A DNA stretch of 64,000 nt, from NCBI GenBank assembly GCA_036172245.1, contig JAYWIR010000075.1, positions 1 through 64,000 on the forward strand, given 5' to 3'. This document shows positions 24,501 through 57,172 of the stretch, in pieces. Under the pieces are notes generated by a model. It had not been told where the DNA came from, did not search any database, and saw nothing but the letters and a program-made list of their open reading frames with translations. The DNA is from Raillietiella orientalis (Eukaryota). A program made the translations under genes and the position numbers. Positions within the stretch are counted from its first letter, which is position 1. Each line of letters begins with the position of its first letter.

Positions 24501-27500
24501 GTATCATATAATAGGATACGTATTTTTTTTACCTTTAGAATAATTTTTTCAGCATTTGTTTGACATAAAGCAACTATAACTATGTGATGCCACAAAGCTC
24601 TTGAGTTCATAAAATTCGAAAACACCATTTTATCATTGGAAATTATTTGATTTCCGTTGGTGTTTGCTCTTAACCACACACAGAAATCAACTAAAACATT
24701 ACGAGAATTTTATTACTTTAGGAGTTCACATTCTTACCTTCATTAAACAACCAGATTTCAATATTCAACTCACCATCAGTAATGGAAAAAATATGCAATA
24801 ATTGAGAGCTTATACCTGGATCACCTAAAATTGAATACCACAAATACAATTCTCTGGGGGAAATTTCACAGAGTGCAAACAGGTTAAATAATACAGTGTT
24901 GCTTGATAAGCTGAATAAATCTGCATTAAGGAACTTACTGTAATGACCTCTGAATTGCTAATATCACACGATCATATGAGTACAAATGTTCATCAGTAAT
25001 GAGATTGTTACACTATTTCGTCAGATATTACACAAATTTCAATTTGTGAATACGAACTCAATCCAAAAAAATGTAATTTACGGAAAATAGGACATTCTTG
25101 AAAAAGAACAAAACCTAAAAGAAACAGCAGCAACCCAAAGAAATTGAAGCTTTGAATTCTAAGAGGGCAATCATAAACCCATACATGATCTCAAGGAAAT
25201 ATTATTTTTTAATACCACAACACAGGAATGGATTCAATTCAACATAACAATGAAACAATCTTACATGGAATGCATTCATTTTTACAAACATATTTATCAC
25301 ATCACATATATACAACTGTGCAATTTCACATTTTAAGGACAAATTTTCAATGATCTAATAACACAGAAAACGAATTCCAAAGATTGTGAGGTAGAAATTT
25401 TAGTGAGCTCATTAAATTTCCTAAGAGAGTGGATGAATTTCGAATCTAAGAGAGTGAAAAACAGAGTGCAATATTTATTCAAATCAAAATAATTTTCTTT
25501 TTAGACAAAAAGGAAGACTGCAACTGGAACTGCATGAGACCACAATAAGAAACACTTGAAACACATTTCTGGTAATGAAAAGCATACTTAGCATAGTTTG
25601 TATACAAATTCTGAAGATGGAGATAAATGCTAGATTATGAATGAGGAATTAGAAGTGAAAATAAACAAAATTAAGCCCTGAAAATTTGAAGGAGAATTTG
25701 ATAAAGCACTAATAATGGCAAGCTTAAAGCAATTTCAGCTCATTTGAAAATGAATTCAGGCACAGTTAAGTCAGCTAAATAAAAAATAAAAAATGCATAG
25801 TGCAAAAAATTCGAATAGAATCTTAAAGAATAATTACAAATAATAAACAAGCTTATTCAGGAAGGATTTAAGGACAATTAATGAAATATCATCAAAATGA
25901 ACTTTTCTATAAATAAAAAACAATTTTGCAAACGGGAAACTTCCTTACAATATAATTTTATATATTTCTTTCATTTATAACAATTCTTTGAATTTCCAAA
26001 CATCACAAAATTTTGACAACAGTTCACTCAAAATAAATGTTTATTAATTATTTACATTTATGTAGCTAAATCTTCATAATTTCCCTAAACTCAATTTTGA
26101 AATTAGGAAAATGATAAAGAACCGTTAACGCAAAATATATTTCACAACTAAAGAGAATACTAAAATAACTGGAATTGTACTTATTGCTACCCTACATTTG
26201 ATGAAGATAAAGATGAAGTTACTTACCAGAAAAAGAATCGTTTTGCTGTGCTTTTGGATTAAATTTACATTTGGAATCTATGTATTCGTAGCTAACCCAT
26301 AGAGACATCATAAAACCTTGTGAAAATGGAGACCATTTATCCACATCTAGGGATATTTGAAAAGCGGATTCTGAAAATCCTGGTGAAATAAGATTACTTC
26401 ATTTAGTGTGTTCTATCAATTGCATGAAGGAACCTTCAAAATTAGGAACTTTATCAAAATCTTCATGAAAACACTTTACAGATGAAGTCCACTGTAAATA
26501 TTTCATTGGTTCCTGAACACAGTGCTTTGAGATTTCTAGGAAATAATCCAGATATAGATTCTAAAACATAGGAATGAAATCATGCAGGCCTGAATTGATT
26601 AAAAAATACCAAATCATGAAACGAAGTTTTCAAAATCTTCAGAAGACAGCGTAATTGATTTTTTGATAACTGACTGGGTGCAAACAGCGTAATGAACTCG
26701 AAAAAATACCTTTTCAAGCCTAAAAGTATAATTACGTTAATATCATTCACGGATTGGTGCGAAAGTTGCTAATATAAACTAAATCATTACAACAAGTATG
26801 CATTCTTGCATCATAAATCCCAATATTAAACACACATGTTTCGCTACTTAAAGACTTTAAATTGTGGTAGCAGATGCTAGTGAAAACAATGCAATCAAAA
26901 CAGTCTTTACGATGCTCTTTTGACACTATAGATATCTAAATTCAACATTGTTCCATTCAATCCGACATGAAATCGAGAAATTTGAAATGAAATCTTCCTA
27001 CCAATGTAGGGCATTTTGCATTTTTGTTTCTTCTCCATCCCCTTTGCTAACATTCACAAATTTAACATCCTGATGTTCACTTAGTATTGAACTTTGCTGA
27101 ATTATCACTTATTGAAAATATTCCTAATTAAAACCTAAGGAGTTCAACTCAAGGGGCTTCTTTTCACAAACATTAGATACATGAACTTTAGAAAGAAGTA
27201 CTTACACAAACCTTAGAAGGTTAAAGTCTGCATAAGTACTTAGAAGGCTAAAGAATTCTCTATAGCTTATAAAACTGTCTCACTGAATCTGCAAATAGCA
27301 TAGCTTTCTTTTAATTGGAGAAATTTTCTGTTTATGAACGCTCTTTTTTGTGTGAAAGAAAAGATCTCTTCAACAAAAAGTCTCTGGAGGAACTTTTATT
27401 CAACTGTTATATGTAATCTTATGTTCAACAAGCAGTTCATAAATAGGCATATTTTTTAAATTAAAGTATAACTCAAGTGTATTTTTTTAAAAAAATGCCA

Positions 27501-30500
27501 CCATTTAATGGGTACAAAACAAACGGGATGTCAAATAGAGCAGCATATTTTGGGCAACTGATTCTACAGAAACATAAATTTCCATTACTCAATGACCAAA
27601 CTTTATGATTTTTTTTTTCCTTAAAGGTTTCTGTATTTCTCAAAGCACAAATGCGCATCAAATAGTATTCAAATGTCTAAAATGAACGTCTTAATAGTAT
27701 CTGGCAGTCTCAAGCTGTTAATGATACATGAAACATAATTTGCAAAATTGACCATCACATTCCGAAACCTCTAGTTTTACAAAATATAAATAAATACAAC
27801 TGCTCACAAGAAACACATCAGTAACTGAAAACAAGCAATGAATGGACTTAGCATTGGACTTAACATTAGGTCTACTACATTGAATACTTTCTGGTAAATT
27901 AAATGTTATTGGAAATTGTACCACATAAACATGCTTAATGCCTTTATAAATTTGGAATGCAGTTTAATGTACAGTGAGAAGAAATAACAAATCCAAACTT
28001 ACTTGAGGTAGACAAAGGATGTGCCAATATTGATTTGCAGCCATAAAAAAATATCTTTTGCAGACTTTTATTTTTCACATTCTTGAGAACAGGTGAGCTA
28101 CATAGCAACATAAATTTTTCACATTGGTCTTCTAATTTTTTCATGTTCATACTCTAATTGAAAATTGGACATAAATAGGATTCATACTAGGGAAACAAAA
28201 ATATGCAAAGTGCATGCTTGGAACAATCATTAAAGTACTTTGCATTAATTTTTTGGTTGATAAAATTTTTTAATAATGTTTAGATTTTAAATAGTAGACA
28301 TACTGGGTTAATATCCTATGCAATTCAGAATACATTACATTCATGGAATTAAGACTTAATTTATCTGCACAAATGAAAAACACAGAGCATGATGACAAAC
28401 TAAATGGGCTCCACTGTCTAAACAATGGATACTTCCTAGAAAGCAAATTACTAAAGCATTTATTAATTTGCTTAGTCTCATAACATTTCTAAAATGAAGA
28501 ATTCTATTTGAAATGTCAAATATTGGATCACATTTTGAAAAACCAGTTCATGAGACATTTTCATAATCTGACAGTAGTTTGCATACGTAAAGTATAAAAT
28601 CTATTTTCCTGATTTTCAACTGAAAACTTCTGAAAATGACGGTTTTGATATGACAGCACATAATAAATTTGCATATAATGCTTCTATTTTGATAATGTAA
28701 TATACACCACCATCCTCTATGCATCACAACAGCAATTAAGACTCGATAGGACTTAATTCAGAATAGATATATGTGATAAAGATTTTTGAATAATTTAATA
28801 ATTTTTAAAATGGCATTTTGAGGAAGACAAACATATAAGATGTTGCTTATGTTGTGAAACAAGTTTCTTATAAAAACTGGTTTTGTGATTTCAACTACAA
28901 AACAAATTATAATTTGATAATAATTTGTTAAATTCAGTATATTTTCATGACTAAAGTTCAAGGCTATAAAATGGAAACTCTTCATTGTGAAAAAAAAAAA
29001 AAAAAAAACATGTGATAAACACGCATCTGACATAAAATTTTTTTGATATATGTTTAATTCCAGTACAGCAAAAGTATTTCAACATATGTAATCCAAATTA
29101 TGCATTTACATAGTAAAAATTCTCATTTATGATGTTAACGAAACATACAGTAACGAAAAACTAATGTGCAAGAGTTAAATAATCATTCATGTTTAAATTC
29201 CTAAAGAGGGCAAAATGTATCAATGATCATAAAACCTAATGCCCACTTCATAAAAAAACTATGTAATCTGATGAAATCCGTCTAACAGAACTGCAATGCT
29301 AGTTAGAAACATGCTTTGTTAAAAATAATAGTTTTTACCTTTGTGCACACCACAAAACAAAGTTTGGACAAAAACACCACATAATATTTAAGCACAGAAG
29401 AAAACTGAGGATAAATTTTCAATCTTGCACTTGCACCAGTAATTTTAGGACTGTTTTCCACTTCAGAATCTGCTTCATATCCATCACAAAGACACAAATA
29501 TTCAGAGCTTTCCCAGTCAGAAAAATCACAGATCTCATCATAAAGAGTTCCAGCATTGTTGATCATCTCAAATCAGAGAAAAATGAAATAATAAATTTCA
29601 AAGGTTAATGAAAACAGTGAGCTGCATTATAAAACACTTACAGGATTATTGCTACATGTATTTCCATTCAAATGAATGGAACTGATATTCAATAATATAT
29701 CACATATTAAGCATATTTCATCATCACACATATCACAAGCAAGTAATGATCTGAATACAACAAAGGGCTTTGAAAAATCTGAAATAAACATAGCATGAAC
29801 TTTTGCTATTAATTTTTTTTTTTGCCTTCTAAATCCATCTTGAAACTCTGTTGAGACAAAAGTAGCAGTAATATGCACAATATATAATAAAATGATTTTA
29901 AAAGTGGTAGATCTTTTGTGAAACCTAAAATTCACATCATTCAGCTTCATTATTCATTCAATAGTGAGGATACTCATACCTGGAGATCTGAGGTTAACAA
30001 CTTCTTCAAGGGCTTTGATCAACCACCGACAATGCTGAATTATTGATGACTTTTTGAGTAGGTCATGTTCAACATGAAATAACAATATAACTTTAGCTTC
30101 AATTAACCAAAGAATATTCAACACATTCAAGTGTGAAAGAAGTTGAATATACTTTAAATTGGTAGTATTGAATTCCTTTGCATAAGCATATTCTTCAGAC
30201 CATTTCTTACAATGCTGTGTTGTACTTCTAAAACTATGCAAAGTGGTGATCCAGTCACTCAGTTTTGTTATGAATCCAGTTGTAATTTCTTTCAGGCATT
30301 CAGTGAAAAAAAAAAAGCAACTTTGAAAAAAATAGCAACCGAGGTTTCCCTTGAAGATATCACTTTCATTACGAGTACAAAAAACTGCACGACTTTCCCT
30401 GTTTGTTACCATCAGCATGATCTCAAAACATGACAACACTGAATTGGGTATCTGCTGAAAACTCATTAATTTTTTTAGTAGACTAAGGTGATCAGAAGTA

Positions 30501-32667
30501 ACAAAATGATGAGTAATAGGCTGCAATTTCATCAGACTAGATAAGCCTTTGAACAAATATGCGATTTTGCACAAACTCCAGATGTTCTCCAAATTGCTAT
30601 AAACACTCAAGTGATTTACTAAAGGAAGAATTACATGTAGATATAAAGCAATTTTTAAGAAGATGCTGCTTTCAGAACAAAGCTTACATGCATGACGAAT
30701 AAAAAATAATGAAGATTCGCCTAAATTAATACACATGTTAAATAAAAACTTGATTCCATTCCACTTCTGATGTGAAATTCTGTACAAATAATAATTAACT
30801 GCTTTATGAATTATGGATTTGAGGCTCAGCGTTCTTGCAGTTTTCAAATTTAATTCATTATGTACATTATCTTCTAGGATATAATGCATGTTTAAGTTGT
30901 GCTCTAGTTCCAATGCACATATTGAACAATCCACAGTTTTGGAATTGTAGGCACCCAAATTTGCAAAAATATTTTGTTCCAAAAATAGCAGACAAGTGGA
31001 CTTTAGTGGTGGTTTAGTGTGCAAGTACATAGCTTTAAATGCAACCTCTGGATGTAAACAGCAGCAAATTCCACATTGGGTGATTTCGGTTAACAAAAAT
31101 GATGCCTTAGGAATTTCCAAGCAAGCATAGACTTCAAGCAAAATTTCATTTAAAAATGCAACTATGCAAACATTATTAAACATATTTGGCTTTCCAGCTG
31201 TTTTTGATGATTTCAAGATCTCATGATGATGAGGATCATATCTATGATAGGAACACTTCCTATGGTTTCTTTTATCACAAGTGCAAAGATGAAGATAGAT
31301 GCATTTAAGAAACTTAAGGGAGGAAATACTTTTACAAAACACCTTAACAACCAAATAAAAAATATCTGTTTCTCCGATAAATGCCTGGTCAAACACTGAC
31401 CTAGGGTTTGCATCTTCAAAAACATCTTTATACAAATTGAAAGCAGCAATTACTTGAGTGACAGTAGAAACCTGCTTGCTGAATTTTTCCAAGAAAGTCC
31501 ATACAACTAAACAAATTGAGATTTTCACATCTATGTATTCCAAAGGTCCATCCACTAACATGAATGGCACAGTGATTACTGAATTCAGATTGTTCAACAT
31601 GTTTAACAATAACAATACCAGCTCTGGAAACAAGATGTGAAGTGTCTCATCACTCTGATCTAGGATACACAAAATGCAGTGATATATCAAGGATAAAAGG
31701 GGGATAAATAAAAATTGAAGTGCTTGGGTTTTTCTATGGATAAGCATAGTAGATAATTTAATAACAATAAAAATTAACTGAAAAAAATTTTCTTTATGTG
31801 AGATCTCAAAGTTTGCTTCTGACTCATAAACTTTCTTTACAACTGATAATAAAATGCAGTACAGCTCCAATTTATTTATGGCATTACATCCAACAATTTC
31901 AGTAACTTTCAAACACATGTAATCCAAAAAGTCATAACAGTCCTCATCTGATTCCAATTTGTTTTGTGCTTCTCTTGAGATTTCATGGAAAATGGCATAT
32001 CTGCTATCCATTTTTTCTGTGTTTTGTGTGTTTCCTGTTTCAGAAAAAAATGAATTACATGCCAGTTCATAGTCATATAGAACAATATTTTTGATGAACC
32101 ATGGGTGTATGTCCATTTCATGAACGAAATCTGTATTTTTCCAGATAAGAATGAATATTAACTGAAGACTTTTTTCAACACCATCAAGATTTAATAAGTT
32201 CTAAAATAATAAGCACAGATTAGTGTCAAATGCAAAGTTTCATCATATACAAATTCTGTATTTCATTCGACTCTCGAAAACCATGTTTTACTATGTTTGC
32301 ATTAAGTTTCTGAGGAGAATATGTATAATCAATTCAAAGGGCAGTATATAAATTATGTACATCAACAAACATTTTGTATGCAAACACAACATATAACAGA
32401 TTTTGTTTTCTTTAAAAGTTCAGATAGTGGAATATCTCACTTGGACATACAACTGTATATAAACTCACATGAACTGACCTCAAAATAAATATGCTTTAAA
32501 ATAATAAGAAACTTCCATCCTCTGTGTCTTATAAGATACTGAATCAAGTTTTCAGTAATGTTACTTTTCTGCTGATTTAGAATATTCGAAATATCTTCCG
32601 AAAAGGTTTTGATGATGTAGTTCGTCAAAAAATGCATACTTCTGTAATCACTACATACGTTACTCAT
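14585..32667 (-). CDS. LYST: Lysosomal trafficking regulator (Chediak-Higashi protein), multi-exon gene; span runs from ATG to stop including introns
   Basis: N-terminal [14 protein letters not shown]; about 2.2-kb exon with [12 protein letters not shown] and [32 protein letters not shown] and WD40 domains; last exon ..LQIWKG..RVIV then TAA at 14587-14585; GT-AG introns, many only about 40-60 nt. Full exon map not resolved. Confidence 0.92.
15710..19330 (-). other. LYST: LYST PH-BEACH domain exons
   Basis: [69 protein letters not shown]. Confidence 0.93.
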
Positions 32668-33379
32668 CAGACTGCATACACTAAACGTAAGCTTTCTTTC
32701 CTCTTATATAAAAGTGATTAAGAGATTTACTTGCATTATATTGGCACAAAAAACAAATCCTGTTTAGAATCTCACGGCGATTTTTCATTTCATGCACTCT
32801 GCATAAGCACCGAAATTCCTATGCCGACCACCAAAGATATGAGATAACGGCGTTTACATGAACAGTTTACGTGAAGTTTTCCTGAACTAGAACGTGGTGT
32901 GTTCCTAAGAAAAACATGGGCTTCTCGACTAAATGTTAACGAACATGCGTGCGAGGCTCTTGACAGGAAAAAAAAAAGAAAGTCTGGGTTCACCACACCT
33001 TCCTGGGAGTGCCTGGCACTTGACTTTTTCAGAACGAACGAGTAGAACTTCCGTGGTTTCAGAAGTACTGAAGCAGTCCGTTTATCTCGCAAGGAAAACC
33101 TTCTCAATGCCACAATCTGAGAGTTAATGTATCGAAACCTAACCGGTGGACGTTAGTTCTGGTTCCTTCTTCGTTCGAGCCTGTTATCTGGAGCACAGCA
33201 TGCATAGGGAACTGGAAACACACCGTACTCGGAAGTGGTGCTCGTACTAATAAGCGGAGAGTTCCTTTCCACACACGTTTTTGTGTTGCAATCACCACAA
33301 CGATTGCTTTTTTTTTTCTTTTTCTTTTTACAGCCTTTCTACAATTCCATTCCCCAGTATTTTCTCGTATTGATGCATC

Positions 33380-33560
33380 GCTTCCTTATGCAAGAAGCTT
33401 TCGCGAGGGAGAAAGCACTGCGCAGTCGCGGGCGTGGCGGGAAAAACTCTGTCGCAGCTCTCCGTTCCACGGGAAAGCTCCGACCACCGTAACTTTCACT
33501 TTTACGAAGCGCACTTCGCGGATTGCTTTCAAACGCAACGATCGGTTTTTATCGTTGCGA
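33380..33560. promoter_or_regulatory. Probable promoter region upstream of LYST (possibly bidirectional)
   Basis: Local CpG/GC-rich patch in AT-rich DNA about 0.8 kb upstream of the LYST ATG; GGGCGTGG GC-box-like and GGCGGGAAA E2F-like words. Confidence 0.35.
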
Positions 33561-34304
33561 TTTAGCTCTTTATTTCCATACGTGGGTGCATCAGACATCA
33601 TTCTTATTTATAAGGATTAGTTATAAAAAAAATTTTATGCACAACTCCTCTTCGTGATGGTTTCAGAAGTCATATTCCATAACAGAAACGGAAAAGCACG
33701 ACCCCCGTCATAGTGACCCAATAGTGTTAATATGAGGAGGAATTATTTCAGCCCTCTAAAAAAAAGTCTACTGGATAACTGAATTTTCGGGAAAAAAACG
33801 AAAACTGATTCACCACTACATTACATGAGATGTGGGAGAGCAGAATGTGAGAACGGAATTTTGTATGTATAAAAGGTCTTTCATCTCTAGATTGGGAGCT
33901 AATCAAACAACTTCACAATCTGAAATCAGATGCTTATTCGTAAAAGTTTTATGCCAGCCATAATCACGCCCCCGCAGGGATCTTTGGCTGCGATTCTGTC
34001 CGCAGAGCTCAAAGTCAGTCGTCTCAAAGTCTTTCAGTTCTGTTCGATAGGTTGAGCATTTACAGGAACGGAAAACGGTTTGATTGCTTGGGACTTATAG
34101 GTAAGGCTGCAATGTTTTGTCAAGTAAAGAACTTTTCAAAAGCAATCCTCCGCTAATTTCTGGTTATTTTTGGTTATTGACAGATGCGTCCACATCTGGC
34201 TCTGCATCCTTTACTCCAATGCAGCTCGTAGAATCTCGGTGATACTTACTCGATGATTAGGGGAGCGCAGGAAGTTTCCGGAAGAATTCCGTGTTGGTTG
34301 TTGT

Positions 34305-36664
34305 TTATTACCCGGTTGCGCCGGGACGTTTATTTATAATATCATCTGGGAACTGTGTCCCCAGGCAAGGGAAACAGAAGAAGGGGAGTAGATTTCCCGG
34401 AACGCAGGCCGAGCACACTGAGAGTTCGAAACGGGAGGGGGTGGGACAATAAATAAAAAAATTGGGTGGGAGGGCGGGGACAGGGGTATGCAGTTTAACC
34501 GTTCCTATTCTCAGAACCGGCGGTGAATGCCGCCGATCTCCGTCCTCACTTCTGCTCCCAGATGTGGCCACCCGGCAGCCATTGGCAGGTTGCAGGCTGC
34601 GGTGTCGGGGACCGATGTTGGGACCGCTCGCATCTGCAATACGTGGTGGGCCCTGACAATGGCGCGGACGCAGCAGATGCTTGCGACGACCGCTCCAAGA
34701 GAAAGACCGCCACGCGTGTAGAAGCGGCGCATCCAATCCAGTGCGGTGTGTTCAGGGTGCAGGAGCGCTGAAGACAGCTGCCGCCACAGCTCCTGGAGGG
34801 CACCGCACTCAAACAGAAAATGCGGAAGCGATTCCATCGCTCCGCATTGAGCACAGTTCGGGGAAGCAACTCCCCCGGAAATCAGGTGCGCCTACTGGTT
34901 GCAGTACAAATCCCAATGCACCAGCAGAAAAGCGTCCTGTTTCCTCCGAAGGGGAAACACAGTCGCGTCCAAGCACGCAGAAGGGACCACAAGTTCTTCG
35001 ATGGGCACCCCGAGGAGCTCGCTCAACCGGAAAAGTCCCTTGGCATGAAGGCGAGGCGTGGCAGCGTCTGCCAGCTCGCAAGTCCTCCAGCCGCCCAGAA
35101 GTCGGGTTTCGCCTGCGATTTCGCAAGCGACCTCCCAACTCGCCGGCAGGTCAGTGTCGTCTCGCACCATCAATGCAGACAGTGCTAGGGGCGTGGCGGC
35201 TAGGCGTGTCCACTGGTCCTGGTCTTCAAGCACCTCCCTCACTGGACAGTATGGGGAAAGTTTCACGCAACGGAGTTCCAAACGGGACACATCCTGTTGC
35301 GCTGCCCAGAACGATAAGGCTTCCTGCCTCCAGGCGTTGAAGTTCGTCGGCCGGCAGGAGATTCACTCATGCTTTCCCAGAAGCGTGGCGAGCTGCTTCA
35401 AAGGGAAGCCGAATCCTCTCTGGGCGCGTTCCGTGCGCAGATGCAACGAACATAGTCCGTCGCCACCCGTGCAGCGCCGCAGCAGCAGCCGCGCTGGAGC
35501 ACACCAGGGAGTAGTCCAGAGCTGCGCACAAAGTGCCAGCATGCGGAACTGCACTAGCAGTCCGATCCGCTCCAGCGTCAGCATGCCCAATCCTGCATCC
35601 CGCCGAGGAGCCGCCAAGTCCTTCAGGCGTATCCTGGACCTCGCCGGTCCCCACAGGGCGTTACGCAAAAGGCGTTGCGCCCGGCGCTTAGCCGAGTAGG
35701 GAGGGGGACAAACAAAAAAGAGGGGACGGAGGAGGGGGGCAACGAAAATGTTCCACACGAAGGCCCGTTTCGACAGGAGAAACCTGCCGCCTTGGAACGG
35801 TCCCAGAGCAGTCTCGGCCTTGTGAAGGCAGTCCGACCACGCTTATGCTGGACAGAAGGCGCCCAAGGGAACGCCGAGGTACTTTAAGCACCTGCCCGTG
35901 GGGATCCCCAGGCGGATCCAGTCGGACTGCCCTCCCACGTAGAGCCAACCGGTACAACGGTTGATTTCCTTCTGTTGACGCCCAGGCCCGCTCCCCGACG
36001 AATGAGCTCGAGGAAGTCTTCGAGCCTGGACGCCGGGATGGACATGGGCAGCAGCAGGAGAAGGTCGTCAGCATAGGCGGCCACGGCTGGAGTTCCCGGA
36101 CAGAAGCTCGGCAGGTTGGACAGCGTCAGCCTGTACGCCCTCAGCACCAACTCAAAGAAGATGCTGAAGAGCAGGGGGCTTAAGCTGTCTCCCTGCCTGA
36201 TATTCCGCCGTATGGGGACGCCGTACACGTGGCACACGCTGGAAGAGATACAGCATAACGCGTGGCGCCAGCAGGAGCGCAAGTAGGCGATGAGGTGCGT
36301 CGGGAGGCCTAGGCGTCCCAGAAGCTCCAGAAGGAGGTCCTGGTTTACGCTGTCGAACGCTTTGCAGAGATCGACGGCGACCGCTTAGGCTCCCGGCGTT
36401 CCATCGTGCCTTGAACTTCGCCGCTTACCTTTGGCAGCGGCGATTTAGGCTGCCTGGCTCTGCTGCGCCACGCGCTGCTGCAACTCGAACCATGTTCGCG
36501 CGAAGAAGAGATTCGCGTCCATGGACCGCCCCGGAACAGCATACTTATGCTCCGGATTTACCAAGGACTCCGCGATTCTCTCCAGCCGCGCGACCCATAG
36601 CTTCGAGAACAACTTGACGTCCGAATTCACCAAGGTGATCGGACGCCAGTTGCTGAGGTGGCGC
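34305..36664 (-). mobile_element. 5'-truncated LINE family E copy (E2)
   Basis: Highly similar to 4166-6531, sharing some lesions such as the LYCNQ-stop; 3' hairpin at 34311-34325. Confidence 0.95.
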
Positions 36665-36705
36665 CGTCGTCGAACGCATTCCCGATGTTGCCGAACGCTG
36701 CCAGA
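36665..36705 (+). mobile_element. 41-bp piece of family A ORF1 at the 5' junction of E2
   Basis: 40/41 identical to 44570-44610 (VVERxPDVAERCQ). Confidence 0.85.
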
Positions 36706-38194
36706 TGTGTAGGCGCATCGGTTTTCGTGGTAGGAAGATTTTCTGGTGGCAGTGTAAGTAAAGTGCTGCAGATTCAGTTTTGGTTTGGAAAATGGGATGT
36801 GAACCCGCTGAATGTGCGAATCCTGCAGTCGTGGCGCAGTCAGGCATCGAAGCGTACTACTAGTTGTGGACGGAAAATGTTTGAAGGTTAAAAGAAAGTA
36901 CGATTAGCACTGTGATGGGAGTGGCAAAGTAAGTACTTGAGTATGCGTTTCAGTTGTTGGGTAAATCGGGGAACCCTCGAGTATCCCACTTCTTGTTATT
37001 CGTGTAATTGACTTGGAATAAACGATGCACATGTGGGAATCCTTGATCAATCAGCTGGATTGCTGATCTGGTTAAGTTTAAATGGACACTCCCTTATCTG
37101 AAATGCTGCTTTCTTTCAGAGTCCGGAAAAGTAATGGAGTTTGGAATGAATAATTTTCAAAGTCAATGTTTAGTCTCATAGCACCAGTTGGTATGATGGA
37201 AATTCTAGACGGAAGAGTAAACGGATAGGAAAAGAAGAGATGACTCAGATAGAATGGTTATTTTAATTGCATCGTTCAGGACGACCTGGGCAGTTAAGCG
37301 TGTTTGGGTTGTGAGACTTTCGAACACTCATTAAAGTGCTGAGAATTCCCGTGTTTTCGTTGATCTGATGTGTTGGCAGAGCATGGCTTGCTGTGTACAG
37401 AGGGTGTGCAGTCCTTAGATGCATATTATGTGGACATGTTGTCTAATCTGCACTTACCTGAGTAGTGTAGTTCATGATTGTTCCTGATCCTTTGACAGAA
37501 GTAGAACTGCGTTTTTGCACTGGTCTCTGGAAAATGTCACATCACATCCTCAAAATGAAATGCCAGATGCTGTTGTCTTGAAGAGAGCATTCACCTGCAA
37601 AATGCTCCAGTATGAGAGAAGCTTGCAACAGTTAGAAGAAATGTGGGTGCTGTAGGCATTAGGTTTTGGTTTTGAACTTTTCATGTGGAAGTTTATTGAA
37701 CAGTTTTTGTGTTTGCTTTTATCAAAGTATGCAATTTATAATGTAAATTACTCAGTGTGGTAGATCACTTTTGATTGATAAGGAAGTGCACTGCATGCAG
37801 CATATTGTACCATGATGTCTGTTGGCTGAGGGTGACAAGAGGAAGGTGAGAATTGATGACTGGTTGCAGGAGTTCTTGCAGCAGAGGACTGCTGTATGAT
37901 GAATTATCTATAATATAGATAATTCTACGTGGTAATTTCCTGTCAGGATCAGAGGGGACGTGGGAATTGATGTATTGATTCGAGTATTTTGTTTGAAATC
38001 CCACAGCTTGGTATGTATGGAAAGTTCATAGGAGTTGGTATCCTTGCATGCACTTAATCTGCATTCTGTATTTAGTCTAATGATGCATAATAATGTTGTG
38101 GTTCACTCAAGCCCTGAAGGAGTATTGACAGAAAGATGTGATCGATTGCTCAATACTGGCTTTGCTTTTTCTAGCCTGAATATAAGAATTTAAG

Positions 38195-38425
38195 CGTAAG
38201 CCGAGACTGCAGGCGTACAGGGACAATCGCACGGCAGGTGCGCCAGAGTCTCCCTGTACGCTCTCAGCACCAATTCGACAGAGGCTCTGAAGAACAAGCG
38301 GCTCAGGCTGTGTCCCTGCCGTATGCCGCGTCGCACCAGTACGCCGTGTACGGTATGCCCGCTGAAAAAACGTTACTAACGCGCCACAGCAGCCGTCCAG
38401 CTGAGATCGGTTCGATCTCCCGGGC
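38195..38425 (-). mobile_element. Degraded RT fragment (X), outermost visible layer of the right cluster
   Basis: Reads GIRQGHSLSRL..ELVLRAYRETLAHLP..TPAVSAYA on the minus strand. Confidence 0.75.
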
Positions 38426-38430
38426 TCGTA

Positions 38431-41314
38431 CAGTGCAGACGTGTTTTCCCGTCTCTCCATGCCCGCGATCGAGCATCTTTGTGCCTGCGTTTTCGCCCGC
38501 ACTTTTGTGTTTCTGTGAAGTAGTTAAAGCAGCGTTGTGCAACATGGCCAATTCTCAGAATAGTGTGGAGGAGCAAGCCACTAAATCCACTTCCAATGGA
38601 CTGGAAGCGGCCGCATCCTCCGTGACGGTTTCCTCGCCTTCGGTGAGGAGCTACGCCGCCGTTACCTCCCAAAGACCAGGACCCTGCGATGCGGAGTTGC
38701 AGGCTTATGTGGCATCCGGCTACATGCCCGCACTCCGTTATAAGGTCAGTGGGCCCCTTAACGGGAGGACCGGGCGTGAGCTCAACGATGAGCTCGTCCG
38801 GATCGGCGTTCGGGAGGAGGAGCTCCTTGCCATCATGCCTGCGGGCAGGATGGAATACACAAAGATACGGTGCAAAAACGCGGCACTTGTGCAGCGTCTT
38901 CGTACTCCGTTGTCCATCGGTGGCAAGGAAGTCCTGCCTTCCGTGATGGACGACTCGTTTGTCGTCCAATTGTGCGACATCGAGCCGGAAATCTCCGACC
39001 GCGATGTCGCAAGCTGCTGGCGAAGTTCGCCACCGTGCACGCTCTGTGGAAGACACCAAATTCTCTAAGGGATTTCCCCTCTGTCTACATTGGACAAGCC
39101 TCCGCGCGGATCACCGTCGCGAACAGGCGTGTTGTGCCTGAGCAGCTGCAGGTGAACGGCACAGTCGTTCACCTGTGGTTCATAGGCCAGACTCGCGCGT
39201 GCGAGCAGTGCGGCAAGGAAGGGCCAAGAATTAAGGAATGTCCCACCCCGAAATGCCGCTACTGCAAAGAAACCGAGCACGAAATCAAAAAGTACCCGGT
39301 ACTTGCGAAAAAAAGGGCAGCAGCGGAACTTCGTCGAGTCCAAGAGACCGAAGCACGAAAAGCCGCTGCACCCAAGAAAAAACCCGGTTCGCGGAGACTT
39401 GGCAGAAGAGCCAAGCAATACGCGACTAGGAAGCAAGCATTCCTGCTCGTAACGCTCCGAAAGGGCGAGATCACGGCAGGGAAGCCAATTAAAAAAGGGC
39501 GCGAATGTGCGACGCTTGTCATCCCCGCCGTCGCTGCCGAACTCGGGAGCACCTCCGAGACGAGAGTCAGAAAATCTCTGGAAAAACCTAGACCAAAAGG
39601 TAGGCAAGCAGGAAGATCGCAACAGGGCGAGCACTTCCTGAGCCATTCCGTTGTTCCTCCAGAGTTCCCCAGAGCCCCAATGTAATTCAGGGCCCTCTGC
39701 GAAGGCTACAAACGCCGTAAAATGCAGCGGCGCATTGCGCAAGAGCACTCTGCAGGCAGTCGCCCCAACGCCGACTCGGAAGCAACTGAGCAATCTCTCG
39801 ACTGCCAAGAAGGTGAATCCGTTGCAGTCTTTCGAAGGCGTAACGAAAGCAACGCCCTAGAGGCTGCAATGGAAACCGCGGAGGTTTCCGCGACTTCTGA
39901 CACGGAAGCCTCCGAAAATCGTGAAGGCTAATGGAAGGTTGTGGAGAGGAGAAAAGAAAAATTTCCAAACAAAGGTTCGCAATCTCCATCCCTGAGTCCT
40001 TCCAAGGCAAAGAACAGTCGTGTGAATAGAAAAACACGCGCGGCGGGTCCCTCTGTCTTGCATAAAGCCAGCGCCGTCGACGCGTGCAAGTCCGCCTCCG
40101 TAACCGCCGAACAGACGCGATCAGGTGGAAGCAGACGCACGATGATCGCGCGAGCATCAGACTCCGTAAAGGAGTCCGATAACGCAGCTGAACGACGCGT
40201 TACTCGCGCCGGAGCCAGCGCCCGCAGGGCTGAAGCCCTCAGGCGTGGCACACTCGCGGTGGAACGGCTAGTGCTAACCCTCGAACCAACAGGTTCTGCA
40301 CCCGGGGAGGAGCACTCAATTACGCGCAGCACGGTGGAGGCCGGTGCCGACCGCACCCTCCAGCCCGTCGTGCTGCTTACTGCCCGCTCGCCGGGTGAGA
40401 CGAGCACCACGGCCTTGCTTTCCCAGCCGTGATGAGGCAATCGCGTCTTCTCGTCGTGTTGCCGTGGCGTGCTGGAACGTCAACGGTCTCCAACACGACG
40501 AGAAGAGGCGACTAGGGGCTAACGCTCTCAACGCCTTCGACTTGACGCTCCTGCAGGAGATTCACAGCATCTCCGACGAGCAGGCTGCGAGATCGAACGG
40601 CGCGCGGGCGGAAGGCTACATTATAGGTGCAGCGTCGCACGTACGTGTGGCGTCGCTTTCCTCGTACGAGGAACTTTGGTGGGAGCGGTGCGCAGAGTTA
40701 GCTTCGACACGGAAGGCCGAGTGGGACAGCTTGTACGCAAGTGGTTCGACTCGATCGACCTTGTCGTAACGAACGTGTACACGCCGAGCGGCGCTGGGCA
40801 ATGGGCAGAAAGGATTGAGTTCCTCGGTACCGTTCGGAGCCAGTGGCTCACTCGTTCTCACTCTACTGTGGCGTATCTCATTGCGCGGGACTTTAACGTC
40901 CATCTGCTGACCGAGAATAGCGCACACAAAAGGGAAAAGTTGCTAGCGGAAGAGATGTGCGCGTCCGTGCACGCGTGCCACTTGTTCGCTAACGACCCTG
41001 ATATGGCGACGTCGCCGGACCATGTTTTCCTTGATGAACACTTGCACTGTCGAGTGAGTCGGAGAGGTCCCATGCCGTGCGTGCTTTCCGAACATAGCAG
41101 GCTCGAGTTTGAGTTGCTCCTTCCAGGCAAGGGGCCTTCAAACTGTGTATGGAGGATGCCGGCAGACTGGCTTAGCCGCCCGCAGGCAACGGAGCATTTT
41201 CGCCAGTACCTCCGCGGGTTCGCCACAGGTGTACTCTCGGACTAAGACGATCTGGAAAGATCGGTCAGCGAGTTCTGCTGCCGCTTTCCCTTGCACCAGC
41301 TTCCGCGAGGCTTT
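38431..41314 (+). mobile_element. LINE family D, 5' end, ORF1 (ATG 38544, disrupted) and endonuclease part of ORF2
   Basis: AGACGTGTTTT at 38437; RSYAAV; CEQCGKEG; TGATG at 40430; WNVNGL; cut by B' at about 41315. Confidence 0.88.
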
Positions 41315-43416
41315 ATAGTTGTCACATGGGTACGCCCGGGGTGTTTATTTGTAAAAACTCTACATCCGCGGTACGAGGCCCCGTTCACGGTCATAGGCAC
41401 AGGACCTGCCGGGACGCCGGGACGCAGCCCGGCGTGGCACTCCACGGCAGCGAAAGGGGATGGCGGAAAAACAAAAAGAAAATTAAAAATAAACAAACAA
41501 AAAGAAGTTGGAGGGCAGGGAAGGGATCACTGCTCGCTGTGAGGAGGGCCCATCCGTTGAACGAAGCCCTCGAGGTCCATCCGTATATTCCCCAGTTGGG
41601 GCCATCCGACAGCTCTCTGCATGGAGCGTTGAGCATATGGGATGGCATCCCTCGCGTGTGGATCCACTCCTTTGTTGTTGGTGTCGCTCCAGGCAGCCAC
41701 GATGCCTCGGACGCAGCACAGGGCTGCGATGGCTGCGGCTGGCTGCAGTGCGTCCTTCACAAAGAGGGACCGGAGAACGTCTCTGGGGGTACTGCCCGTA
41801 GGGAGATCGAGGGTCGTCCCGAACCGTTCCCAAAGGAAACGGAGAGCAGCACAGTCCGCAATAAGGTGGAAGAACGATTCCCGCTCTCCGCACCTGGCAC
41901 ACTTAGGATCCACAGCTCCCCTTGTCCTGTGGAAGCGGCGTGCGTTGCAGGGTAAACCCCAATGCAACAGCAGCAACGCCGACTTTTGCCACTTAAGGGC
42001 CAGGATCCTGAATTCTCTTAAAACCGGGGGCTACTTCAGCTCATCCATCGGGATGGCAAGCAGCTCGCCCCATCTCTGCAATCCTCACAGCTATACGCTC
42101 GGGATCGTGGCGTCCGCCAGTTCTCCTGTAGTCCAGCCGCTCAGCAACTTCTCACGTCCCGCGATGCAGCAGGAGACCTGCCACAATGGCGTTTGGCTGC
42201 TGTGAAGTGCCCTCCTCAGGAAGGGCAGCGCAGTAGCTAGACAGGTCGTCTCTGCCCACTTGCTTCTAGCGGGACTCTCGAGAAGATTCCGCAGCGTGCA
42301 ACGGGCGTGGTAGCTGCATCGGAGACGATTCCACGACTCTTGGCTCCGCTGGTTCACAACAGCCCAGGTGCCGATATTCTCTTCCAGCCAGGCGGAGAAG
42401 TTGGCGGGGCTGCAAACCATTAAGCTCTTCTCCTTCGCCAGGGTTACCATGCGCCCGAGCAGTAGGAAGCATCCTCTGATCATCCGGCGTGGGTACAGAA
42501 GAAAAGACGCGAGTCCATCGCACCGAGACAAACGGATGGCAAGGAGTCGGGCCGGAACGTACTAAGGGATGCTCCACATCTTCGCTGCGATGGCGAGGGT
42601 TCGCCATCGCAGCTGAATCTCCAAGCGCTCCAGCGTCAGGAGGCTGAGACCGCCGTCCCGATGCGGAGCGCACAAATCCATGAAACGGACTCGGGGTCTC
42701 CCGTTGCCCCAAAGAGCGATACGGAGGAGGTCCTTTGTTCGCTTTTTTATCCTCTCTGTGGGGGGGGAAACAAAAAGCAGGGGGCGGAGGAGAGGAGCCG
42801 CGAACGTGTTCCAAACCGCGGCCCGTTCAGGCAGGAAAAGCCTGCCGCCTCGCAACGGGCCGATCGCCGTCTCTACTTTTTGAAGGCAGCCGGACCACGC
42901 TTCCGCAGGGGAGTAGTCCCCAAACGGCACACTAAGATACTTGAAGTACCTAACCGTGGGGATTTCCAAACGGACCCAGTCCTCCTGCCCTGCCCATGTC
43001 ACACCAACTGGCACCACCAACGACTTCGCCTCGTTCTCCTGTAGTCCGGCGTCAAGGCTAAGCAGGTCGAAGAAATCTCCGACCGCCTTCGCCGGGGTGG
43101 ACATAGGTAAAAGGAGCAGAAGATCGTCAGCATAGGCTGCTACGGCGGGCGTGCAGCGGCACAAGCTCGGCAAGGGGGCCAAAGTCACCCTATACGCTCT
43201 CAGCACAAACTCAAAGTAGGTGCCAAAGAGCAGGGGACTCAGGCTATCGCCCTGCCTTATGCCTCGCTGCAACGACACACAATACAACATTCGACTGCAG
43301 AAAGAGATGCAGATAATCGCGTTCCTCCAGCAAGGTAGGTGATCAAGGAGGGTGGGAAGCCCATGCGAATAAGGATCTCAAAGAGGAGTTTCTGGTCACC
43401 GCAGTCGAACGCCTTG
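41315..43416 (-). mobile_element. LINE family B-like copy B', 3' half of ORF2 and 3' UTR
   Basis: C-terminus very similar to 59577-60308; begins at the KAFDC motif where A1 is joined. Confidence 0.9.
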
Positions 43417-43440
43417 CGTGCGCCAGGGTGGACGTGTTTT
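43401..43440 (+). promoter_or_regulatory. Inr/DPE-like core promoter spanning the A1 junction (also 47538-47573, 7746-7711, 48932-48967, 560-525)
   Basis: GCA(+1)GTC with A at 43403 and GGACGTG starting at 43430, i.e. +28. Confidence 0.6.
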
Positions 43441-45443
43441 CTCGGTGCTCCTCGTGCCAGGAAATCTCCCCCAGTACAAGCGTCGTGTGGTTCGGTGGTA
43501 GATCAGGCGGCGATGCCTGACGCAACCACCAGGGATGGCCAGAGAACAGCGGCAACGCCGCCCCCAGAGGCGATGGAGGTGGGGGCATCCGCCCCCACAG
43601 AATCAATCCCCGCTGCAGCGCGGGCGTGGAGCGCCGTTGTGTCGGCGCCATCGCCTACAGCCGCGGCGGAATTGTCGGCCTATGTAGAGGAGGGCTACAA
43701 CCCCTCATTGTTCTACAAGGTAGGCAATCTATATTCTTTAGAGAGCGCGCGCGCCTTCTAAAAGGGCATGCACGCTCTCGATGTGAAAGAGGAGGAGCTC
43801 AGCGCTATGATCATTCGCAGCAGGGGTCAGTACGTTGAGGTCATCTGCAAACAAGCAGAGCTGGCCCAACGACTGCTTAAAACCCCCGTTGTGATGGGGA
43901 CCCGCAGGCTCCTCCCCACTACGGCGGACCGCAGCATTGTGGTCCACCTGTTAGGCGTAACCGCGCGAATGCGCAAAGAACAGGTTCGCGCCGCTCTGGA
44001 ACAGTTTGGAACCGTCCACGCGCAGTGGACGAAAGTTAGTCCTTTCGAGGACTACACGGAGCTGCAACACGGCCTCACGGCTGCGCGCGTGACCGTTCGG
44101 GAGGGCTGCACCCTACCCCACAAACTGGTGGTCGAAGGCGAAACCGTCGACCTCTGGTATGTGGGGAAGCCGAAATACTGCGGCTTCTGCAATACGTCGG
44201 GCCACCTCAAAAAGAGGTGCCCAACGTGCAGTGCCAAGTATGCGGCACAATGGGTCACACGAGGGAGGTGTGCCCAAAAGCAGCAGTGCGGGTGGTTTCC
44301 AAGAGAAACCTTAAAAAACGCGCCCGGCTGCTGCAGAAAAAGCTGGCGGCGGAAGCTGCCGCGAAGGCTGTGCCACCCGCGCCCAAGGCCCAGGCCGCAC
44401 CCGAGACTTCAGCGAACAACGCCGAACAAGTAGAGGGAACTAGCCAGGAGCCTGGGTGGTAGGTGGCTACGGCCAAAAAATCAAAGAAGTAGAGGAGATT
44501 GGAGAAAAAAATCGCCTACCAACAGAACAAGAAAGAGCAGGGTAGCACGATAATTAAAGAGTACAGCGTCGTCGTCGAACGCGTTCCCGATGTTGCCGAA
44601 CGCTGCCAGAAAGAACTCGCCCCTACCGACGACCTCCCCTCTGTTGACTTTGTCAACAGCGAGGGGAGCGAGCCGGCGGCGGCGTCCGTCATCGACACCA
44701 CCATCGATGACGTAGCCTTCGCGCGAGCTGCGGAGGAACTGGCAGCCTCGTTGCAGCCAGAACCCTCCAAGGCTGGCAAGAAGGCCGTAAGGCGTCCGGC
44801 CTCCCCTCAAGAGTCTCCCACTTCCGACTCCGAGGTAGAGACCGGAAGCGCAGCCTCCGTTTCCACGGCACCGCGCAAGAAGGCTGGACGTAATTCCACA
44901 AAGCAAAGGAGGTTCGTCTCCCCCGTCGAAGGGGAAGAGATGGCTTCCGCAAGCGAGGGTGCCATGAGCGTGGGAAACTATCAAGACCCGTCGCTCGAGA
45001 GACTCCCAAGCGCGGACACGGAAGGGATGCAAGGGGTGGAGGCCGATCAGTGCCTCAGGTGCCTGAGAAGGCCTACACCTTCATGGACATCCCGCCCGCC
45101 TCGCAAGAGACGGGCACCCCCACACCTTAATCTTCCCAGCAGTAATGCCGAAAATCTCCTTCTGCCGTCGTCTGCGCATCGCCGTTTGAAACGTGAACGG
45201 CATGACAGACGCCAGCAGGAGACGAGACATGGCCGCCCTTCTGGAGTCCTACGACCTTGCGCTGCTGCAGGAGATCCACGTGATCTCTGCAGAACAAGCG
45301 CAAGAGATCGAACGGATCTCCGAAGGGCGGCTGTGGTACAGGTGTGGGAGACCGAAAAGTTGCGGTGTCGCCTACCTACTTCGGCCAGCCGTCGAGGCTG
45401 CGGCTAGGGGCGTGCGGTTCGACGATTACGGTCGTGTCGGCCA
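43417..45443 (+). mobile_element. LINE family A copy A1, ORF1 (ATG 43513, disrupted) and start of ORF2
   Basis: GGACGTG at 43430; CCHC knuckle; TAATG at 45143; carries empty B and E target sites. Confidence 0.92.
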
Positions 45444-47553
45444 TTTACACCCGGATGTGCCGGGGCATTTATTTCTTTGAAATAAAAATACATGAAATGT
45501 CGCGTGGCGAACGCGAAGGTTCACCACTCCAAAACAGCTTGCTGGTTACCGGGTCAATGCCGGAAAGGTAAATTCCATGCGCGGGTATGGGAAATAAAGA
45601 AAAACTTAAAGAAACAAAAAGTTCAAATGTGGGTGGGGAACAAATGTGGTAGGGGTGGGAGGGCAAGGAAGGGATCACGGTGCGCGTGGACAGGTCCTCT
45701 AGATCCTGTTCAGGTTCCGCACAAGCTGAGTCCTTTCAGCGCCCAAGTGGCGCCACTTGCAGAGACTGCGCGCGAAAAGGCGAGTCCAGTGTAAGGCGTT
45801 GCCGGTTGGCTGACGCCTTCTTCTGGTGGCGTTACAACCCGCAACTATTCCTCTGATGCAGCAGAGGACTGCTACACTAGCTGGCGGGGACAAGGCGTCA
45901 CTACAGAAAAGGCGCCATAAAACGTCCTTTGGGACGCATCCGCGCAAGTCCAGGATAGCCGCGAGACGATCCCAGAAAAAGCGGACGGCTCTGCACTCAA
46001 GGAGAAGGTGCGAGAATGTTTCTTTTTCCCCACACCGGTCACAATTAGGATCCACAGCCCCCCGGGTGGTGTGGTGCAGGCGTGCTTTGAATGGTAATCC
46101 CCAGAGTACCACAATCAACGCCACATCCTGCCATTCCAAGGGGAGGGATGCACTGTTCCAGGACGCTGGGTGCCACTTCATCTTTTCCGGAGATAGTCCG
46201 AGTAGCTCGCCCCAGCGTCCAATTCCGTTGGGCGGGACACTCGGCGTCGCAGCGTCAGCTAGCTGCCGAGATATCCACGCCTTTATCGATTGTGTGCTGC
46301 CGCCTCTGGCGCAGGACACGGTCCATTTCCCCTGCTCGCTACTGTCCCTGGCATTCACAAGGAAGGGCAGCACTGGGGCGAGATGGGTTATCAAGGCCCA
46401 CAGAAGCTTGTCGTGGGACTGCACGATCTCCTGCAGCGTCCAGCGGGCGTGCCTTTTCATACACGTGTTCCTTGTGCCCTCCGGAACGTGGATCTTTCCC
46501 CAGGTGGAGACTCACTCGTGCAACCAGGCAGAGTAGTTCCCTGGGAGGCAGGAGATCCAGGCATTCTTCCGAACCGCAACGAAGATGCGTCGCAGCATAG
46601 AGCCACAGTGTGCTCTTCTGCAGATGCGCGCAGACAGAAACGACAAAGTCCGCCGGATCCTCAGGCTCGTTGGGCCAGGAGTCGTGCTGGGATGCACCAG
46701 GGCGTGTCTCACATTTCTGCCGCGAGGGCGAGAGTCCTAAACTGTAGTTGCACTCCCATGCGCTTCAGCGTAAGAACGCCAATTCCACCGTCCTCACGTG
46801 GAGCGCACAAGTCTTTGAGCATCACACGGGACCTCTTTTTGCCCCAAAGGACTGGCATCTGGAGGCCCGCTGCTCGTTTCCGAATAAAATAAGGGGCGGG
46901 CAAACAAAAAGTAGGGGACGGAGGAGGGAGGCCGCAAACGCGTTCCACACCGCGGCCCGTTTCTGCAAGTAGAACTTGCCTTCTTGGAACGGACCGATCG
47001 CCAACGCTGCCTTTTGGAGACGGTCGGACCAGGCTTCTGATGCGCAGAAGTCCCCCAAAGGAACGCCAAGGTAATTGAAGCACCTGCCCGTTGGGATCCC
47101 CAAGCGGATCCAGTCCAACCTCCAACCCATGCCGAACCGACAAAGACCATGGACGACTTCGCCCTGTTCACCTCCAGGCCCGTCCCGCGGCGCAGAAACT
47201 CGAAGTCCTCGAACGCACTCGCCGGGGTGGACTGGGGAAGCAGGAGCAGAAGATCGTCGGCATAGGCCGACACGGCAGGCGTGCCGGGACACGAGCTCGG
47301 CAGGGTTGCCAAAGTCTCCCTGTATGCTCTCAGCACCAACTCAAAGTAGATGTTGAAGAGCAGGGGGCTGAGGCTGCCACCCTGCCGGATGCCACGACGA
47401 ACCGGCACGCCGAACACGTGCCGGCCGCTGAAATTAATATTGATGAACGCGAAATGCCAGCAGGAGCGCAGGTAGGACTGGAGCACGGCCGGGAAACCCA
47501 TGCGTTCCAGGAGCTCCAAAAGGAGTTCCTGGTCGACGCAGTCGAAAGCTTTA
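45444..47553 (-). mobile_element. LINE family F, 3' half of ORF2 and 3' UTR
   Basis: QGGSLSP, YADD, CDRC..H...C; 3' hairpin at 45450-45464; begins at KAFDC where A2 is joined. Confidence 0.9.
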
Positions 47554-48947
47554 CGTCGGCTAGAGCGGACGTGTTTCCTCGGTGCTCCTCGTGCCGGGAA
47601 CCGTCCCTAGGTGTAGGCTTCGTGTGTGGTGGTGGTCGATCAGGCAGCAATGTTTGACACGACCACCAGTGCGTGTCAGGGGGCGGTAGCAACGTCGCCT
47701 CCTAAAGAAATGGAGTGCCAGGAGGCGGCGGCAACGTCGCCTTCAGTGGCGAAGGAGGTGGGGGAGTCCGCCCCCACAATACCGGTCCCCGCTGCAGCGC
47801 GGGCGTGGAGCGCCGTCGTGTCGGCGCCATCGCCTGCAGCCGCGGCGGAATTATCTGCCTATGTGGAAGAGGGGTATAACCCATCACTATTCTACAAGGT
47901 AGGAAATTTGTATTCTTCTGAGAGTGCGCGCGCCTTTTCGAAGGGGATGCGCGCTCTCGATGTTAAAGAGGAGGAGCTCTGCGCTATGACCATTCGTAGC
48001 GGGGGGCAGTACGTAGAGGTGATCTGCAAGCATGCAGATCTGGCCCAACGTCTGCTTAAAACCCCCGTGGTAATGGGGACACGCAGGCTCCTTCCCGTTA
48101 CGGCGGACCACAGTATGGTGGTCCACCTTTTAGGAGTTACCGCGCGGATGCGGAAAGAACAGTTACGCGCCGCGTTGGGAAAAGAAGGCACGGTCCATGC
48201 AGTATGGACCAAGCCTAGTCCTTTCGAGGACATTACCACAGTTCAGTGCGGCCTCACGGCTGCTTGTGTAACCGTTCAAGAGGGCTCTATCCTTCCCCAC
48301 AAACTGGTGGTCGGCGGAGAAAGCGTCGACCTCTGGTACGTGGGGAAGCCCAAATACTGTGGCTTCTGCAACACGTCGGGACACCTCAAAAGGAGGTGCC
48401 CCAACGTACAGTGCCTGGTATGTGGGACAATGGGCCACACGAGGGAAGTGTGTCCACAATCCGCTGTGCGCGTGGTTTCCGCAAGGAACCTAAAAAAACG
48501 CGCGCGGCTGCTACAGAAAAGGCTGGCGGCGAAGGCTGCCGCTCAAGCTGTGCCACCCACTCCCGTGGTCCAGGCCTCAGCCGACACCCTGGCAACGAAT
48601 GCCGAAAAGATCGACAAAAGCGGTCAGGTGTCGGAATGGCAAGAAGCCACAGCGAAAAAGAAAAAAAAGTCGAAGAAAGAACGACGAATTGAAAAAAAGC
48701 TCGCCTACCAAAATAAAAAACAGCAGGTTAGCGAGAATTTAAAAGAATGCAGCGTCGTCGTGGAACGCGTCCCCGCCGAACGCCGCAAGGTAGAAATCGC
48801 TGCTACCGACGAGCAACCCACTGTTGAAAATGTCAACAGCGTGGGGAGCGAACCGGCGGAAGCGTCCGTCATCGAGACCGTGATCGATGACGCCGCCTTC
48901 GAGCGTGCGGCGGAGAGCTGGCTGCATCGTTGCAGCCAGCCCCCTCC
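47554..48947 (+). mobile_element. LINE family A copy A2, left part (ORF1 from ATG 47650)
   Basis: Open ORF with two CCHC knuckles; resumes at about 60527. Confidence 0.92.
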
Positions 48948-51265: not shown

Positions 51266-51342
51266 GAGTGCGGACGTGTTTTCTTCGCTCTCGTCTCCGT
51301 GCTTTCATCCGCTTCATCTTGGCGTCGTACATTTTGACGACG

Positions 51343-57170: not shown

Positions 57171-57172
57171 AA

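Follow-up and report, generated by a model that had tools for sequence, protein, structure and literature searches.

A truncated retrotransposon beside a 41-bp fragment of another retrotransposon in Raillietiella orientalis: possible 5' transduction from a read-through transcript

How did a truncated retrotransposon lying in host DNA come to carry at its 5' end a short piece of another retrotransposon, cut at the very position where its full-length relative is inserted? The question is raised by the first 64,000 nucleotides of contig JAYWIR010000075.1 of Raillietiella orientalis (GenBank assembly GCA_036172245.1), the whole of which is called the window below. Two GC-rich nests of long interspersed nuclear elements (LINEs) of the apurinic/apyrimidinic endonuclease (APE) type, located at 1-14020 and 38193-64000, enclose AT-rich DNA. 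Family E is represented by the copies E1, in the left nest, and E2, between the nests; the other partner is LINE family A with the copies A1, A2, and A3 (Table 1). According to the best explanation, to which about an even chance is given, E2 and the adjoining A piece were retro-copied from the RNA of a 5'-truncated E in an A1-type element and inserted off-target by target-primed reverse transcription, which amounts to 5' transduction.

E1 consists of a 5' untranslated region, an open reading frame 1 (ORF1) frame at 775-2763, an APE endonuclease (2715-3758), and a reverse transcriptase (RT, 4385-5944); the ORF2 frame is interrupted, and the 3' end reads ...GGGTAATAA without poly(A). Domain matches were obtained for Exo_endo_phos (2.2e-13) and RVT_1 (2.1e-12), and all nine matches of the endonuclease among solved chains were L1 endonucleases. 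The closest match of a sister ORF2 at 53233-56856 was human L1 ORF2p (4.6e-45, vs 6.9e-16 for R2). Judged by these matches, E is an APE-type retrotransposon without long terminal repeats (LTRs) that is L1-like among solved structures.

E1 splits A3 in antisense orientation at the SVVVER codons of the A ORF1. The 9-bp target-site duplication ACGACAACG is present at both ends of E1, the sequence directly after E1 is ACGACAACGCTGCATTCTTC, and A3 was recognized on both sides, with window positions 545-719 aligned to A1 44768-44593 on the 5' side of E1 and positions 6532-8098 aligned to A1 44575-43056 (84.6%). The insertion is thus of the kind described in the original prediction, in orientation, site, and duplication alike. 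The peptide SVVVER is encoded by A1, A2, and A3 alike, with differing synonymous bases.

E2 was aligned to E1 in a self-comparison of the window (4166-6539 vs 36664-34297, 95.3% identity over 2375 bp) and lacks E positions 1 to ~4162. With the intact sister ORF2 used as a ruler, its start falls at ORF2 residue ~480; the truncation reported earlier is real, its exact start lying at the N-terminal edge of the RT domain and not inside it. Directly after the 5' end of E2 stand 41 bp identical to A1 at 40 of 41 positions, as had been noticed. With up to three mismatches allowed, A1 was the sole other match to this 41-mer in the window, and none of 100 shuffles gave a match. The A homology possibly reaches 36661, which would make it 45 nt long with two mismatches and an overlap of 2-4 nt with the E homology. 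On the E strand, the junction reads ...GCGTTCGACGACGGCG / CCACCTCAG, with GCG/GCGCC microhomology.

The boundary of the A piece is the equivalent of the end of the upstream duplication of E1 (A1 44567-44575), which is the same nucleotide as at the E1/A3 junction, and the proposed coincidence of the E1 and E2 5' junctions at one position in the A ORF1 was confirmed. The piece is of the A1 type, the GATGTTGCCGAACGCTGCCAGA part in its distal half being absent from or divergent in A2 and A3. Because the piece at E2 is A1-type and the host of E1 is A3, the two junctions represent independent events and are not copies of one.

In both E copies of the window, the 5' junction therefore falls on one and the same nucleotide of the A ORF1, in antisense orientation, with an A3-type host in one case and an A1-type host in the other. 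The canonical 3' junction is present in only one of the two copies, and two of the three full A sites (A1 and A2) are empty. Based on two copies in one window, E looks site-specific for the SVVVER codons of the A ORF1; the suggestion that it is a third site-specific family is supported by the two independent junctions, at n = 2. In the ORF1 of family A, the APE endonuclease of E would nick the sense strand within the SVVVER codons, the cut following ...GTYGTCGT, and a nick in the other strand 9 nt away would yield canonical E copies that are antisense in A and flanked by a 9-bp duplication.

E2 ends on its 3' side at 34305, not at ~34297, with the exact E terminus TAATAA at 34310-34305. Both flanks of E2 are unique, non-LINE host DNA. 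A sensitive blastn search with 32500-34296 and 36706-38194 against the whole window gave no LINE match, no Pfam match at E < 0.01 was found for 16 flank ORFs, and a search for RNA families in 36600-38300 and at the E1 5' end returned two matches only, both falling well short of the threshold (E = 1 and E = 3.7). The GC content of the flanks is 40-43% rather than ~30%, so that their AT level had been overstated; their earlier description as host DNA holds. Decayed A sequence was considered as the origin of the flanks and rejected; local alignments of 1.2 kb per side with A1, A2, and A3 were within the shuffle range in all six comparisons, under standard and under transition-tolerant scoring.

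The likeness of the E2 3' flank to the E1 flank, which had also been pointed out, was analyzed with junction-anchored comparisons. Among 43,040 host 30-mers, 127 were at least as alike to the E1/A3 flank as the E2 3' flank is (top 0.3%, p ~0.003), compared to 862 for the A2 flank (p ~0.02) and 5317 for the A1 flank (p ~0.12). The resemblance was thus poorest to A1, the subtype that supplied the 41 bp. These counts point to a resemblance to the canonical target that is real but modest. The nine bases on each side of E2 on the plus strand, GGTTGTTGT and CGCCGTCGT, differ at four of nine positions and consequently do not form one duplication. The upstream host flank ends with ...CCTACACA, and ACA is its overlap with the start of the E2 3' flank.

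The two ends of E2 point to two different events. The canonical position, the antisense orientation, and the 2-4 nt of microhomology make the E2 5' junction read as an ordinary 5'-truncated, target-primed insertion into A. The 9-bp duplication of E1 and the 5' truncation of E2 with junction microhomology are as expected for target-primed reverse transcription. At the other end, E2 stops at the exact E terminus ...GGGTAATAA and non-A DNA begins directly after it, which argues for a fresh priming event rather than a DNA breakpoint. One target-primed event is unable to give both junctions, so two successive events are their simplest reconciliation, and the piece of the normal target carried by E2 in host DNA implies a template RNA that contained the upstream flank.

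The sequence of events would be as follows. The insertion of a 5'-truncated E (start ~4163-4166) into an A1-type element, at the canonical E site, would have come first. A transcript beginning upstream in the antisense A would later have crossed this copy, which lacks a promoter, and reached the E 3' end. The E reverse transcriptase would then have taken the read-through RNA and primed at an off-target host nick at 34304/34305, of which the first ~25 nt loosely resemble the target. The E part would have been copied, followed by 41-45 nt of A leader, a length set either by the RNA start or by the stop of reverse transcription, and the complementary DNA would have been joined to the host at 36705/36706. 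While the two E/A junctions, the identity and A1 type of the A piece, the exact E 3' terminus, and the non-LINE flanks are observed, we infer all four of the donor copy, the read-through RNA, the use of this RNA in trans, and the off-target nick.

A conserved motif, ~GGAC[G/C]TGTT[T/C]T, was found within the first ~7-25 bases of the 5' ends of five full-length elements in differing targets: E1, A1, A2, and two other LINEs, C and P. The motif may be a common initiator or a 5' processing signal of these LINEs. Its position suggests that transcription of intact elements is initiated at their first bases and that an outside start is used by dead copies only; a truncated copy, having no promoter, would in that case be transcribed from upstream and would carry the flank. 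The original prediction of a template RNA with upstream A sequence is supported in spirit; its jump of the RT from E ~4166 to the leader is not needed and is less likely, since the E2/A junction looks like that of any 5'-truncated insertion made at the canonical top-strand nick, and the truncation was more likely already present in the donor copy inside A.

Several points weigh against 5' transduction from a truncated donor. No clear duplication surrounds the unit of E2 and the A piece, with only ACA common to both flanks vs 9 bp at E1, and the flank resemblance is weak, depends on the reference (A3, A2, or A1), and was picked for comparison after the data had been seen. No donor copy was seen. 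A truncated, non-coding copy needs mobilization in trans, which is generally poor with LINE proteins. Fragments also end at further points of the nest edges (X at 38193, and K/F at ~11690), where DNA deletions would be an equally good explanation, so that rearrangement is plausible at this locus. The only sequencing run found, one DNA run with 0.08 of the window words, gave 75 short contigs, mostly from diverged LINE relatives, with no joint, none bridging 34304/34305, 36664/36665, or 36705/36706, and no empty allele, and was uninformative either way. A metagenome scan with a 17-mer from the E 3' terminus gave 43 loci; in all 43 the match was due to chance, spanned 17-25 nt, and did not continue into further E sequence.

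The second of the two readings offered originally, in which an A host was deleted around E2, is unlikely. It would start from a canonical truncated E2 insertion in an A copy at this place, with A later removed on both sides by deletions, or by unequal recombination with a second, off-target E plus a deletion. The canonical E2 5' junction agrees with it, and border deletions are plausible, as other nest edges are abrupt (X ends inside YADD at 38193, and K meets F at ~11690). However, one breakpoint must then coincide exactly with the E 3' terminus TAATAA, and the 3' flank lacks A1 likeness, in contrast to the 5' piece with its 40 of 41 matches to A1. The four mismatches in nine between the candidate duplications and the lack of further A homology on either side, even with transition-tolerant scoring, also disfavor this explanation, and its recombination version requires two insertions and two deletions.

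A regular leader of ~41 nt derived from A on the full-length E RNA, to which the RT jumped from E ~4166 during an off-target insertion, is distinctly improbable. Target-derived leaders have precedents in R1 and R2, according to the available parts of the respective reports (PMC2718515, PMC3774820), and the GCG/GCGCC microhomology at the junction could guide such a jump. The jump must nevertheless land by chance within 0-3 nt of the leader/E boundary. The 5'-terminal motif common to E, C, P, and A in different targets suggests that transcription begins with the first bases of the element itself, and an RNA-family search at the E1 5' end yielded nothing ribozyme-like, the single match having E = 1.

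Very unlikely is a larger inserted unit at 34305-37342, composed of E2, the A leader, and 637 bp from a second RNA, to which synthesis would have switched on reaching the 5' end of the first template. This unit would be bracketed by the imperfect direct repeat AGAATTCCGTGTTGGTTGTTG/AGAATTCCCGTGTTTTCGTTG, the score of which was reached by none of 124 host control segments; against the same segment, though, 19 of 600 random host queries reached an equal score. The repeat copies are ~4 edits apart in 21, too many for an insertion of the age of E2, and the 637 bp contain no RNA family, Pfam domain, or other match in the window. An assembly artefact joining two different E copies inside the repeat is highly improbable, for although the E repeat exceeds 2 kb and no read bridges the junctions in the sole run found, a repeat-induced join would leave the A flank continuing and not ending after 41 bp at 1.49 kb of unique DNA.

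Table 1. Coordinates of the features in the 64,000-nt window (position 1 is its first base; ~ marks approximate ends or alignments)
Feature	Position	Strand	Remark
E1, full-length family E LINE	737-6531	+	Antisense within A3, at the SVVVER codons of the A ORF1
Target-site duplication ACGACAACG, 9 bp, E1 5' junction	728-736	+	Antisense of A3 codons in SVVVER
Second duplication copy ACGACAACG, E1 3' junction	6532-6540	+	
A3, ORF1 part downstream of the E site	1-736	-	Runs off the window; 1-736 ~ 49492-48753, 91.5%
A3, 5' part up to the E site	6532-7700	-	5' end adjoins the RT of a plus-strand LINE
Empty E site in A1, CGTCGTCGT	44567-44575	+	Within the SVVVER codons
Empty E site in A2	48753-48761	+	
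E2, 5'-truncated family E copy	34305-36664	-	Equals E1 ~4163/4166-6531; ORF2 remnant split into several frames
Microhomology at the E2 5' junction	36661-36664		Bases common to the E and A homology
Orphan A1-type ORF1 piece	36665-36705	+	40/41 identical to A1 44570-44610; antisense to E2
E2 3' flank, E strand ACAACAACCAACACGGAATTCTTCC...	34275-34304	-	Weak look-alike of the canonical target
Imperfect ~21-bp direct repeat	34283-34303 (AGAATTCCGTGTTGGTTGTTG), 37343-37363 (AGAATTCCCGTGTTTTCGTTG)		Would bracket the unit of E2 and the A piece plus 637 bp of unique DNA
Unique non-LINE DNA	36706-38192		Separates the A piece from the right LINE nest
Conserved 5'-end motif regions	737-760 (E1), 38431-38450 (P), 43416-43450 (A1), 47553-47590 (A2), 51266-51285 (C)		
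Host gene, LYST-like BEACH/WD40 protein	14795-32200	-	Multi-exon; between the two LINE nests
G, B-like LINE (72.7%)	10661-11556	-	5'-truncated
K, RT piece of ~120 bp	11569 to ~11690	+	Antisense to G; 78.9% to 54723-54793
F, LINE	11650-14020	-	~30% RT identity to other families; 3' part cut off by K
X, RT fragment of ~238 bp	38193-38431	-	Antisense; stops inside YADD (...SAYA) against unique DNA
P, full-length element	Starts ~38431	+	Aligned to the 5' end of C; adjoins X
9-bp duplication ATTTCAATC around C	51257-51265, 57163-57171		

The DNA enclosed by the nests contains a LYST-like gene, the exons of which gave a BEACH match (1e-44) and WD40-type matches. The best relatives of its product among 1.84 billion representatives have 3600-3800 residues with BEACH near residue 3100-3300, and for eight relatives the mapping is collinear, starting at 31350 (residue ~420-840 of the relatives) and ending at 14795. 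The large 5' exon is located at 29954-32200, and E2 lies ~2.1 kb upstream of it. The mapped exons are all to the left of E2. A word search with the 748-aa exon gave no long homologues. The left LINE nest begins ~740 bp past the last coding exon.

Similar structures occur at other LINE ends in the window. At the left nest, G is followed by K and then by the unrelated minus-strand LINE F. K starts at KL/FS codons, within ~1 base of where another B-like copy interrupts A2 at 62369, and G/K looks like a canonical junction of a truncated element with a short orphan piece of its target. The 5'-truncated end of F meets host DNA at ~14020, which is the left nest border, with no target-derived piece. 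At the border of the right nest, X would be a leader that P acquired by 5' transduction or, alternatively, what remained after the 3' half of X was deleted. Among the LINE 5' ends that face non-target DNA in the window (F, G, E2, and P), three of the four have such a piece, and the orphan pieces at G, E2, and P could instead be deletion products. The LINE C (51266-57162, with an intact 1208-aa ORF2) interrupts the endonuclease region of B in sense orientation, which means that insertions within this guild of LINEs are not all antisense.

Family E would add a LINE family with its own fixed site, placed in ORF1 rather than ORF2 of the host LINE. This site would be held constant by selection on the peptide SVVVER, with synonymous bases varying among A1, A2, and A3. 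E2 may offer a rare view of a target miss, with bearing on element transcription, the mobilization of dead nest copies, and the seeding of nests beside host genes. Tentatively, and with clearly less than an even chance, it can be proposed that these LINE families use only each other as sites, so that nests in host DNA would be founded by rare off-target read-through retro-copies of dead truncated copies carrying fragments of their old targets. If so, the founder candidates would be E2 with its A piece of 41-45 bp, G with the ~120 bp of K, and P with the ~238 bp of X. E2, in which a KAFD-coding stretch is intact, would in that case serve as a landing pad recently seeded next to a host gene, and the orphan pieces would be datable footprints of the spread of the guild through the genome.

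As far as the analogy goes, the mechanism itself is already known. L1 performs 5' transduction, SVA does so as well, and R1 provides a precedent. In 5' transduction by L1, SVA, and SINEU-2, as proposed for E2, a transcript starting upstream of the retroelement carries the flank to a new locus. SINEU-2 copies are transcribed from their 5' flanks, and 5'-transducing SVA elements are cited, in the available part of PMC4494074. Unlike in these cases, so far as they are described there, the flank transduced in E2 is the specific target of the element itself and the donor was apparently truncated.

LINEs of the Tx1 group that target transposons are described in the same excerpt, with Tx1L in Tx1D and Tx1-Mar in Mariner-N4_AMi, and with Tx1-8_Crp and Tx1-4_AMi targeting LTR elements (PMC4494074). 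E resembles them, to the extent that this source covers them, in being APE-type and L1-related with one preferred site in another mobile element. It differs in targeting a sister LINE, whose coding sequence is entered antisense. In a limited literature search, no description of an L1-like LINE targeting the ORF1 of a sister LINE was found, which is no claim of its absence from print.

R2 RNAs are cut by a ribozyme up to 36 nt upstream in the 28S gene, and the retained sequence is proposed to guide the 5' junction, according to the accessible text of Eickbush et al. 2013 (PMC3774820). The target sequence at the RNA 5' end is common to R2 and the RNA proposed for E2. Unlike E, R2 as described there has a restriction-like endonuclease and is co-transcribed with ribosomal RNA, and the E 5' end shows no ribozyme signal.

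The closest parallel is given by R1. In the available portion of PMC2718515, full-length melanogaster-type R1 elements outside the 28S gene and ribosomal DNA all carry 7-28 bp of upstream 28S sequence ending at the canonical position. This is explained in that portion by a template RNA that includes target sequence from the flank. Many off-target R1 sites share bases with the 28S target, and microhomology explains the 5'-truncated junctions (PMC2718515). E2 is like the off-target R1 copies, within what is reported there, in being an APE-type, apparently site-specific LINE with an intact 3' junction and a short piece of the upstream target at its 5' end; its leader likewise ends at the canonical junction position and is upstream of the element in the RNA sense. 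In contrast to R1 with its ribosomal DNA target, E has the ORF1 of another LINE as its target and is L1-like, not of the R1 clade, human L1 ORF2p and L1 endonuclease being the nearest solved structures. The off-target R1 copies described there are, moreover, full length, with the leader interpreted as a regular feature of the transcript, whereas E2 is truncated and has a canonical truncated junction. Because of this junction, the leader of E2 more likely derives from read-through of a dead donor.

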